A DNA stretch of 64,000 nucleotides from Escherichia coli. GTDB lineage: Bacteria > Pseudomonadota > Gammaproteobacteria > Enterobacterales > Enterobacteriaceae. This document shows positions 50,898 to 53,220 of the stretch, piece after piece (the stretch's first letter is position 1; every line of letters begins with the position of its first letter). The notes beneath the pieces were generated by a model. That model was given only the letters and a program-made list of their open reading frames with translations. It ran no database searches and was not told the origin of the DNA. The position numbers and the translations under genes are program-made. Where the stretch lies: NCBI RefSeq assembly GCF_050920415.1, contig NZ_CP169309.1, one strand, 5' to 3'.

Positions 50898-51269
50898 ATG
50901 CGAATTTTCAAAAACGCCTGGTTTGAACGTTTCGCCCGAAAACATCGTATTTCCGATAAATCGCTGCGCAAAATCGTGGAGCAGGCCGATAAGGGGATCA
51001 TATCCGCAAATTTGGGTAGTGGTGTCATTAAACAAAGATTAGCCCGAAGTGGTGGCGGAAAATCAGGCGGTTACCGGACAATAATTTTTTACCGCGTTGC
51101 AGAAAAAGCCTTTTTCATCTACGCATACGCAAAGAATGAACGAGAGAATATCACCGCTATAGAGGAAAATGCTTTTCGAAAAGCCGCTCCCCATGTCCTC
51201 AATCTTACTAATGAACAGCTGGCACTATTGATTCAACAAGGCCAGTTCACGGAGGTACCCAATGAGTAA
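50898..51269 (+). CDS. Type II toxin, Gp49/HigB-like (RelE/ParE superfamily)
   Basis: 123 aa with GGKSGGYRTIIFYR motif; followed by overlapping HTH gene. Confidence 0.65.
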   Translation: MRIFKNAWFERFARKHRISDKSLRKIVEQADKGIISANLGSGVIKQRLARSGGGKSGGYRTIIFYRVAEKAFFIYAYAKNERENITAIEENAFRKAAPHVLNLTNEQLALLIQQGQFTEVPNE

Positions 51270-51579
51270 AAATTACCGCAGTGATGCACTTGCATCTGTA
51301 CATGAAATGATGGAGTCACTCCATGATATCGGTGCAATCACAAAACAAACTATGCGCGAATTCGATGAAACTTGTCTTCAGCCTGCGCCGGTAATGTCTC
51401 CTGAAAGGATCCGTGCACTGCGAGAACGAGAGCATCTGTCTCAACCTGTTTTTGCCAGATACCTCAACGTCAGTAAAAACCTGATATCAGACTGGGAACG
51501 TGGAGTAAAACGCCCTGGAGGTGCGGCTCTTCGCCTTCTTTCAGTTGTCGAGAAAAACGGGATCCAGGTAATATCCTGA
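51262..51579 (+). CDS. HTH (XRE-type) antitoxin, HigA-like
   Basis: 105 aa; C-terminal HTH LSQPVFARYLNVSKNLISDWERG; overlaps the toxin stop by 8 nt. Confidence 0.65.
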   Translation: MSKNYRSDALASVHEMMESLHDIGAITKQTMREFDETCLQPAPVMSPERIRALREREHLSQPVFARYLNVSKNLISDWERGVKRPGGAALRLLSVVEKNGIQVIS

Positions 51580-51593
51580 TACTCTAATACAAC

Positions 51594-51616
51594 AAAACCC
51601 GCCGAAGCGGGTTTTC
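51594..51616. terminator. Bidirectional Rho-independent terminator between convergent TA operons
   Basis: Hairpin aacccgc-cgaa-gcgggtt with T/A-rich flanks. Confidence 0.6.
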
Positions 51617-51629
51617 ATTAGAAGCACCT

Positions 51630-52124
51630 TTAGTTTTGCTGTTCTATTTTAAGCTTGATAGTTTCATACAAAACAATAGTTGCGCCTGTTTTACAGAATT
51701 CCCGGCTGTCATACGCACGAGACCAATAACACAACCAGTTCTCGAGATCTTCTCGAGTATAGGTTTTGCAGGCCAGTCCCTCTGCCATTTCCACGATTTC
51801 ATCGCCTGGTGCTGTTAACTCATAGCCATTCAACAACAAGAAGACATAACCAGCCATCATAGCTGTTCGTTTGTTTGCATTAGCAAATGGATGATTCTGA
51901 ATCAGACTTTCAATCAATACTGATGCCAGTACAAACATGTCATTAGTCTGTTCATACCATCGAACCATGCTGGGACGAGACTGAGAAGAACTTAAATTAT
52001 CAACACTCAGCACACTAACAGGTTCATCTGGTGTTTGAAGCTCAATTAAAAGGCGATTAATTTCGGTAAGATCATCAAACGAAAGGTAGTGCACTCCTTC
52101 AACAATCTCAGCCATAGAGCACAA
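51630..52124 (-). CDS. Fic/Doc-family toxin (Doc-like)
   Basis: Motif HPFANANKRTA, matching the Doc signature as recalled; 164 aa. Confidence 0.8.
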   Translation of the reverse strand: MCSMAEIVEGVHYLSFDDLTEINRLLIELQTPDEPVSVLSVDNLSSSQSRPSMVRWYEQTNDMFVLASVLIESLIQNHPFANANKRTAMMAGYVFLLLNGYELTAPGDEIVEMAEGLACKTYTREDLENWLCYWSRAYDSREFCKTGATIVLYETIKLKIEQQN

Positions 52125-52133
52125 TACCCATCA

Positions 52134-52358
52134 TTACACTTTTGAAAGTTCTTCCATTGCCTTCTCGTAACGAGAAAAACCGAAATCGAAAGCATTTTTC
52201 ACCTGCTCACGATGAGTGCAATTTTCATCGATAGCCGGGCGCGGAGCTGCCACAACGCTTTTATCGCGAGGGGGAATAGTCAATCGCGGGTGTTTTTTTA
52301 GTGCGTAGCTCATTGGGTGTACCCTTACTTCTCCGTCCTGTTCTTTAACAAAAATCAA
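52134..52358 (-). CDS. Putative antitoxin upstream of the Doc-like toxin
   Basis: Small ORF immediately upstream of doc in the same orientation; not Phd-like; start may be internal (MSYALKK...). Confidence 0.45.
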   Translation of the reverse strand: MIFVKEQDGEVRVHPMSYALKKHPRLTIPPRDKSVVAAPRPAIDENCTHREQVKNAFDFGFSRYEKAMEELSKV

Positions 52359-52521
52359 GTCAATACAAAATTAGTCAGGCTAATGTTGTTAGCATAGCCT
52401 AATACCAATCGTATTCACAACCATAGTACGTGAAAAAACCCGCCGAATCGGGTTAAGTGCGGGTGCGTTGAGGATGCCTGACACATCAGAGGTGGCGAGG
52501 GATTTCTCCCCCGCCAGGTCT

Positions 52522-52677
52522 CTACTCCTCAGGTTCGTAAACTGTGAAGACAGCGACCTCCGTCTGGCCGGTTCGGATTCGTACCTCGCAGAGGTCTTTC
52601 CTCGTTACCAGTGCCGTCAATATGACGGTTAAACAGATGACGATCAGGGCGATTAACATCGCCTTTTGCTGCTTCAT
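52522..52677 (-). CDS. hok: Hok/Gef-family type I toxin
   Basis: 51 aa MKQQKAMLIALIVICLTVILTALVTRKDLCEVRIRTGQTEVAVFTVYEPEE; Hok signature. Confidence 0.85.
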   Translation of the reverse strand: MKQQKAMLIALIVICLTVILTALVTRKDLCEVRIRTGQTEVAVFTVYEPEE

Positions 52678-53220
52678 AGCCTGCTTCTCCTTGCCTTTCG
52701 GCACGTAAGAGGCTAACCTACATGTGTTCAGCATGGATTGAGCCTCAGATTAATGTTAAGCGTCTTGCCGGACGCGTAATGTTAACTGGGGCTTTTCTCT
52801 ATCTGCCTTTTGGTGTTCATGCCTGAGGCAGATAGCCTCAAGCACCCGCAGCAATTCTACTTAACTCACGTCACCTCGCCAATATAAAATCAATCAGAGA
52901 GGTGATTCATAAGAACGATAACAAGACAATAAATTGCCATTACTGCCGCAATAGCCAGCGCACATTTCAGAACCAGCACGATGACCTCCCATATTTGACG
53001 TACACGCGCATGGTTCAATATGTAGCAACCTATTTCTTGCTTCAATATAAAATCAGGTATTGTTGTATAACTATTTAACTAACTCCCTATCCCCACATCT
53101 CAGGCGCTCAACGTCTGTGTGCGGGGCGTTTTTTAATACCTTACCCCCAGCGGCAAATCGAATACACCACCAGCGCCACCGCCATTGCAATTCCTACCGT
53201 TGTGAATGCTTCAGGCCAGG

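Follow-up and report, generated by a model that had tools for sequence, protein, structure and literature searches.

Doc is a well-studied kinase that blocks translation, and its neutralisation has been analysed almost only with Phd as the antitoxin; Doc toxins are already known, at the same time, to pair with different antitoxin scaffolds. Within Phd, the kinked two-helix element Phd-C suffices to neutralise Doc in Salmonella (PMC9207808). Phd-C fused to SUMO neutralises Doc in Corynebacterium, and Phd-C is also found fused to Panacea (PMC10440598), while single-domain antitoxins exist as well (PMC10440598; PMC9207808). The locus considered here, in which a Doc gene is preceded by a gene for a 59-residue protein, belongs to a stretch of 64,000 nucleotides (nt) of Escherichia coli DNA (contig NZ_CP169309.1, assembly GCF_050920415.1), referred to in its full length as the window. 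Three toxin-antitoxin modules occupy positions 50898-52882 of the window, in the nin region of an Stx2g lambdoid prophage: a RelE-family toxin with a helix-turn-helix (HTH) antitoxin, Doc with its 59-residue partner, and a hok/mok/sok locus, called cassettes 1, 2 and 3 below. An initial annotation had proposed such a cluster at 50898-52760; all three modules are present, with coordinates essentially as claimed, the start being right and the end too short, as the candidate hok promoter reaches 52854-52882. The region is probably best described as three independent toxin-antitoxin cassettes in one variable nin-region slot of the prophage, with Doc held by the 59-residue neutraliser. RefSeq already annotates all three toxins, the RelE/HTH module is of a known kind, the hok/sok module is already known, and neither of these two holds anything new; the 59-residue partner is the sole new element of the cluster.

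The toxin of cassette 2 (51630-52115, minus strand) is a 161-residue Doc protein of the Fic fold and kinase type, which carries the motif HPFANANKR, matches Pfam Fic and scores 122 bits against TIGR01550, the death-on-curing family (curated cut-off 38.65). Its closest solved relative by sequence is the Doc of the E. faecalis Phd-Doc module (PDB 9VZC). Members of its Doc subfamily are extended at the C-terminus by a conserved stretch of about 35 residues (WLCYWSREYDSR; WLCYWSREYDSRxLC) that is absent from P1 Doc. In the window this extension corresponds to residues ~125-161 (51630-51740, minus strand), of which the first part is modelled confidently and the last 20 residues with low confidence.

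The gene of the candidate antitoxin (52134-52313, minus strand) lies 18 nt upstream of Doc and is labelled a hypothetical protein in RefSeq. Its start is the ATG at 52313, as placed by PHROG 2208 and the alignment of homologs; the list of open reading frames (ORFs) had carried a longer, TTG-started version. The only hit of the protein is to PHROG 2208, of unknown function, there being no match in Pfam, NCBIfam or PADLOC, and no PDB relative was found with either the single sequence or the family profile. Alignment by hhalign to P1 Phd, whose query sequence was verified against PDB, returned a probability of 1.4% and no profile similarity, and homology to Phd was rejected on the strength of this value and the empty PDB searches. 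The Phd/YefM N-terminal DNA-binding domain was not found in the partner, for which AlphaFold2 (AF2) predicts no folded N-terminal domain. A ribbon-helix-helix protein, suggested by an RLTIPP strand and a GFS turn, was likewise considered and rejected, since AF2 gave neither a strand nor a second folded helix pair and Pfam gave no hit. The inhibitory motif of VbhA and FicA, (S/T)xxxE(G/N), is absent from both the 59-residue sequence and the family consensus, as read directly. The earlier description of a Doc-like toxin with a small upstream partner that is not Phd-like is thus upheld on both counts.

The partner family is small, with 39 matches among 1.84 billion representative proteins, nearly all of 44-95 residues, and 17 clusters at 90% identity. 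Conservation extends down to ~40% identity across genera and is concentrated in two parts of the alignment, an N-terminal RLxIPxRDK segment and a C-terminal half of the form H..QV.NAF...F.RY.KA...LSKV.

The association of the two genes was examined in two independent searches, one starting from the small protein and the other from Doc homologs (a narrower partner alignment had given 7 genomes). Both genes occur at 25 loci, which represent 18 distinct partner-Doc sequence pairs, one of them with a truncated Doc copy, and without exception the small gene stops ~0-18 nt short of a Doc-subfamily gene with the HxFxNANKR motif. Among all loci of the small gene with sufficient sequence behind it, only one borderline homolog lacks such a Doc neighbour. 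The pair occurs in several genera of Enterobacterales, namely Escherichia, Salmonella, Kluyvera, Citrobacter, Hafnia, Rosenbergiella, Yersinia, Xenorhabdus, Ewingella, Providencia, Serratia and Pantoea, and in metagenomes, and its surroundings differ: in E. coli it lies in lambdoid nin regions, in Salmonella among siphovirus tail genes, in Ewingella and Pantoea among myovirus baseplate genes, in Providencia in the chromosomal topA-sodC interval, and in one metagenome-derived genome beside the gene of a TonB-dependent receptor. Of the E. coli genomes with the pair, 124/124 have both genes, and the pairwise distances of partner and Doc are correlated (Mantel r 0.86, p 2e-4). Because the pairing recurs in unrelated neighbourhoods and the divergence of the two proteins is correlated, the two genes behave as one mobile cassette.

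The relationship of this cassette to the other two was followed in 5426 complete E. coli genomes. Of these, 4721 have a hok-like sequence, 214 the RelE/HTH pair and 124 the Doc pair, and only 33 combine the three modules. Individual prophages carry different sets. Thus, an Stx-type prophage of O145:H28 has hok and, downstream of the hok site, RelE/HTH; O157:H7 F6294 and strain M6 have hok and the Doc pair; and all three modules are found in the window and in a non-Stx lambdoid prophage of O104:H4 2011C-3493, from the lineage of the 2011 outbreak. A Salmonella enterica prophage (locus L004, 4496-7009) has hok in the opposite orientation, the 59-residue/Doc pair, ParDE and VapBC in a row; Rac-like kilR/ydaE/recE genes lie beyond this four-module row. 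Since the combinations downstream of hok differ, the position appears as a variable slot that collects toxin-antitoxin cassettes.

The density of modules had suggested, in the initial annotation, a prophage-stabilisation or abortive-infection island. As a defence island the cluster would be co-adapted: a superinfecting phage that stops transcription in the host or destroys the antitoxins would free the toxins, and the cell would die before the new phage could finish its cycle. Anti-phage systems are described as common in prophage hot spots (PMC9122126), different toxin-antitoxin combinations do occupy the same slot of related prophages, and the partner-Doc cassette is also an inserted accessory pair ("moron") in tail and baseplate gene clusters of other prophages, all of which would suit a defensive role. 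A defence island of this kind is nevertheless doubtful, because the modules assort independently, as the genome counts above indicate, and independent occurrence better fits cassettes accumulating at a permissive site than a co-adapted island. A search of the five proteins against the PADLOC models gave nothing convincing and no specific defence model, the matches being generic HTH hits and two weak Doc hits (E values of 0.002-0.005). The sole tested module, moreover, serves its own phage: hokW-sokW of prophage Sp5 is a type I system in which sok is expressed, and it helps lysis and phage release after induction (PMC8621323). A literature search gave nothing specific on the RefSeq accessions of the partner-Doc pair or on a nin-region toxin-antitoxin hot spot.

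The role of the 59-residue protein was approached through structure prediction. Modelled alone by AF2, the partner has a single helix at residues 34-57 and a loosely defined N-terminal half, with mean predicted local distance difference test (pLDDT) scores by block of 64, 85, 69, 80, 92 and 95. A fusion was then modelled in which the partner was joined to Doc through a 30-residue Gly/Ser linker, from an alignment of 16 true pairs and unpaired homologs of each half. It gave a predicted template modelling score (pTM) of 0.82 and raised partner residues 11-60 to pLDDT 92-97 (69-95 alone), figures that are confidence values only. The linker stayed below a pLDDT of 50, the extended N-terminal segment of the partner was also ordered, and the helix was kinked at residue 49 into segments 34-48 and 50-59, both above 90. 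The rise in pLDDT in the fusion is the pattern expected if the whole partner packs onto Doc.

In light of sequence comparison and modelling, the 59-residue protein would quite likely be a stand-alone Doc antitoxin that has no DNA-binding domain and is analogous, but not homologous, to Phd-C. The Doc kinase would phosphorylate EF-Tu, stopping translation, and the protein encoded just upstream would hold Doc in check. Having no DNA-binding domain, it would do nothing but neutralise, with the kinked helix at its C-terminus (residues 34-59) and the extended RLxIPxRDK segment (residues ~10-33) wrapped onto the toxin. The predicted binding would resemble, in function and without sequence homology, that of the C-terminal Phd-C element of Phd. 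The earlier suggestion that the Doc partner could represent an alternative antitoxin type is credible from comparative genomics and structure prediction.

It is improbable that Doc instead requires the 59-residue protein, as a cofactor or as a subunit for targeting, or that the two merely share a transcript, the small protein being an unrelated phage product. These roles would accord with a partner that has no homology to any known antitoxin and no DNA-binding domain, and conserved synteny and a confident predicted complex would fit an activating subunit equally well. However, a small co-directional gene at tight spacing upstream is in the standard antitoxin position for Doc, and the kinked helix predicted at the C-terminus of the partner is reminiscent of the way in which Phd-C neutralises. 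Furthermore, a Doc kinase whose HxFxNANKR motif is intact should, if left unneutralised, kill its host, yet 124 sequenced E. coli genomes carry it, and no other antitoxin candidate lies nearby.

Expression of the partner-Doc operon would start in a candidate promoter region at 52371-52422 (minus strand), read from the sequence, where TGGTATTAG, an extended -10-like element, is followed by the imperfect palindrome AGGCTA-N12-TAGCCT. A consensus promoter scan called no promoter at 52371-52422, and an inverted-repeat scan found nothing upstream of either type II operon. The motif TGGTATTA(A/G), which looks like an extended -10 element, recurs by eye upstream of partner genes in several genera (loci L002-L027). 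The palindromes that follow it differ by locus, among them TTACCTTTAAGGTAA, GGATGTTGATTACATCC and TGCACTAATTTAGTGCA, a pattern seen by eye and without statistical support; they could be operators or hairpins of the 5' untranslated region, and no DNA-binding protein is apparent in cassette 2.

Several observations weigh against a description of the region as independent cassettes in which Doc is held by the 59-residue protein. A partner that has no DNA-binding domain does not account for autoregulation of the partner-Doc operon. The paired alignment is shallow, at 16 pairs, and the fusion model offers confidence values only. Behind the most distant, borderline homolog of the partner (E 1e-4), the 225 nt that follow contain no Doc gene. 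This homolog (locus L018, 1730-1918, on a metagenome contig) comes after an asparagine synthase gene, the contig ending with those 225 nt, and is either an orphan or a chance match. Experimental evidence among the three modules comes from hokW-sokW of Sp5 only, where it concerns lysis and not stabilisation (PMC8621323). The analysis establishes the families, the gene order, the constant association of the 59-residue gene with Doc and the RNA structures; toxicity, neutralisation, mode of binding, regulation and any advantage to the prophage are inferred from these. Finally, the RelE gene of the O104:H4 strain 2011C-3493 (locus L032, 8090-8347) is shortened to 258 nt, with the HTH antitoxin intact, and the module is therefore dispensable in some hosts. 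That some of the modules are decaying remnants, devoid of present function and left behind by recombination in a mosaic nin region, is highly improbable: the truncated O104:H4 RelE gene, pseudogenes among the neighbouring genes in related prophages and the coming and going of modules between closely related prophages point that way, but none of the five reading frames of the window is shortened, their profile matches run over the full length and the catalytic motifs are intact, sok lies in a stretch 100% identical to one that functions, and the partner is kept at down to ~40% identity across genera.

The two remaining cassettes are of known kinds. In cassette 1 the toxin gene comes first (50898-51269, plus strand) and is overlapped at its end by 8 nt by the antitoxin ORF (51262-51579, plus strand). 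The initial annotation had recognised the pair, as a Gp49/HigB-like toxin with an HTH antitoxin; the pair is real and the Gp49 label is not. The 123-residue toxin matches Pfam RelE PF06296 over profile positions 1-120 of 120 (E 1.2e-46), and because this is its sole Pfam family in a scan to E <= 10, in which Gp49 PF05973 was not matched, it is not Gp49 and is instead a HigB-2-like member of the RelE family. Its closest solved relatives are V. cholerae HigB-2 (PDB 5JA8/5JA9). The 105-residue antitoxin is HigA-2-like, with Pfam HTH_3 at residues 50-94, a match to PHROG 2104, and HigA-2 as its top PDB match (5JAA, E 6.7e-8, residues 45-99). RefSeq labels a 100% identical toxin gene as a RelE/ParE family toxin and its partner as an HTH protein. 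Both the gene order, with the toxin first, and the build of the antitoxin, whose HTH comes C-terminal to an N-terminal part, agree with the HigBA-2 type. The RelE-fold toxin would probably cut mRNA on the ribosome, the N-terminal part of the antitoxin would probably neutralise it, and the C-terminal HTH would probably repress the operon's own promoter.

Cassette 3 is a type I module, as had been recognised earlier. The 51-residue hok frame (52522-52677, minus strand) matches Pfam HOK_GEF (PF01848, E 1.2e-21), its peptide is 90% identical to HokW of phage 933W, and its scores against the NCBIfam Hok models are under the curated cut-offs (44 versus 73 bits). It is contained in a 70-residue mok frame (52522-52734, minus strand; PHROG 251, MokW-like) that corresponds to the annotated mokW of 933W. 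The whole locus is 96% identical to hokW/mokW/sokW of that phage, and 100% identical over ~52639-52807, which includes sok and its promoter. A candidate hok/mok promoter (TTGGCG-17 nt-TAGAAT, 52854-52882, minus strand) was found by promoter scan 7 nt upstream of the 5' end of a match to the Rfam RF01794 "sok" model (52672-52847, minus strand; 120.5 bits, E 6.6e-27). Because this match has the orientation of the hok mRNA and stops 3 nt beyond the hok start codon, what it covers is the 5' leader of that mRNA and not the antisense RNA. As a source of sok coordinates it was rejected, being on the wrong strand, and taking it at face value would misplace the antisense RNA.

By transfer of the 933W sokW annotation, the sok homolog occupies plus-strand positions 52726-52796, antisense to the region where mok translation starts and offset by about 40 nt from the interval 52680-52760 first proposed for it, behind a putative promoter read from the sequence (TTGCCT-17 nt-TAACCT, 52691-52719, plus strand). 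The sok RNA is predicted to fold (z -4.95) into a long terminator hairpin preceded by a single-stranded 5' tail. The hok mRNA is predicted to end in a terminator hairpin (AACCCGATTCGGCGGGTTTTTT, 52437-52457, minus strand), which is also the terminal hairpin in the fold of the full mRNA. In the minimum free energy fold of this 418-nt molecule (52430-52847, minus strand) the 5' GGGUGCUUGAGG pairs with the 3' segment just before the terminator (z -6.6), and this predicted 5'-3' fold-back pairing is the arrangement typical of hok mRNAs. A stable hok mRNA would be held untranslated by this pairing together with the short antisense Sok RNA, and loss of Sok would allow the Hok membrane toxin to be made. 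Directly upstream of the hok promoter lies a small, very hydrophobic ORF (52890-53045, minus strand) with no PHROG match; in all related prophages examined, RefSeq has a 34-residue hypothetical protein at the same spot.

Between the two convergent type II operons a terminator scan detected a GC-rich hairpin with a 9-pair stem and A-run/T-run flanks (51594-51615, AAAACCCGCTTCGGCGGGTTTT), which is likely a bidirectional terminator, given the symmetry of its flanks. The host element of the cluster is an E. coli lambdoid Shiga-toxin (Stx2g) prophage with its late genes on the minus strand; it carries the stx2g A subunit (46245-47204, minus strand), whose best match is the Stx2g model at 747 bits (cut-off 736). 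Other genes identified in the window are those for RusA (48701-49060), a DnaT-like replication protein (56471-57586) and a DicA-type repressor (58322-58729). The 2.2 kb surrounding the cluster are 99.1% identical to a prophage of strain MFDS1022581, in which RefSeq places the gene of replication protein P before these five genes and those of RusA and Q after them, that of P being upstream and the other two downstream. Because of this layout in a prophage of 99.1% identity, with which the genes of the window agree, the earlier placement of the cluster between the replication and Q regions is correct. Three tRNAs lie at 47296-47540, and the MFDS1022581 prophage carries Stx2g B as well, together with three tRNAs and Q, in the order that is usual. 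A match to the STnc100 small RNA (121 bits, 45697-45888, minus strand) is on the late-gene strand, downstream of the stx region.

If the proposed function of the partner is correct, a widespread, unannotated 59-residue protein from prophages of Escherichia, Salmonella, Yersinia, Serratia and their relatives would constitute a second, minimal solution to Doc neutralisation and a natural, peptide-like Doc inhibitor. It would raise the question of how a toxin-antitoxin operon is regulated when its antitoxin does not bind DNA, and it would allow annotators to relabel a recurrent "hypothetical protein". In Shiga-toxin prophages and lambdoid prophages of other kinds, a site behind hok at which cassettes vary would matter for prophage stability and induction in pathogenic E. 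coli. A bolder proposal goes further, namely that the 59-residue protein founds a new Doc antitoxin family lacking a DNA-binding domain, which wraps Doc with its IPxRDK segment and kinked helix, and that the post-hok slot is a dedicated exchange site at which HigBA-2, partner-Doc, ParDE and VapBC are swapped as abortive-infection defences; taken as a whole, this is unlikely.

The comparison with known systems is closest, for cassette 2, with the Phd-Doc modules of P1 and Salmonella Typhimurium, which likewise have a small partner gene immediately upstream of Doc. A kinked C-terminal helix like that of Phd residues 52-73 is predicted in the 59-residue partner, but unlike Phd the partner has no Phd/YefM DNA-binding domain and has instead the proline-rich, conserved RLxIPxRDK segment. 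In this it would be like the Phd-C fusions and the small Fic antitoxins VbhA and FicA, in which a short element neutralises a toxin of the Fic/Doc fold without DNA binding (PMC10440598); it differs from VbhA and FicA in the absence of the (S/T)xxxE(G/N) motif, and from Phd-C in the absence of sequence similarity.

Cassette 1 shares with HigB-2/HigA-2 of the V. cholerae superintegron (5JAA) the RelE fold, the GKxGGxR segment and the leading position of the toxin gene, and its antitoxin, like HigA-2, has an N-terminal part, here of ~45 residues, ahead of an HTH at the C-terminus, which aligns with HigA-2 residues 39-93. The similarity to HigB-2/HigA-2 is distant (E 4e-4 for the toxin and 7e-8 for the antitoxin), and unlike that system the toxin belongs to PF06296 and the carrier is a lambdoid prophage. 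Cassette 3 has in common with hokW-sokW of the Stx2 prophages 933W and Sp5 the overlap with mok, the structure of the leader and the 5'-3' fold-back pairing, whereas its Hok has five substitutions in the C-terminal tail relative to HokW of 933W, and whereas the 933W locus lies near attR, the present one is in the nin region, beside two type II modules.

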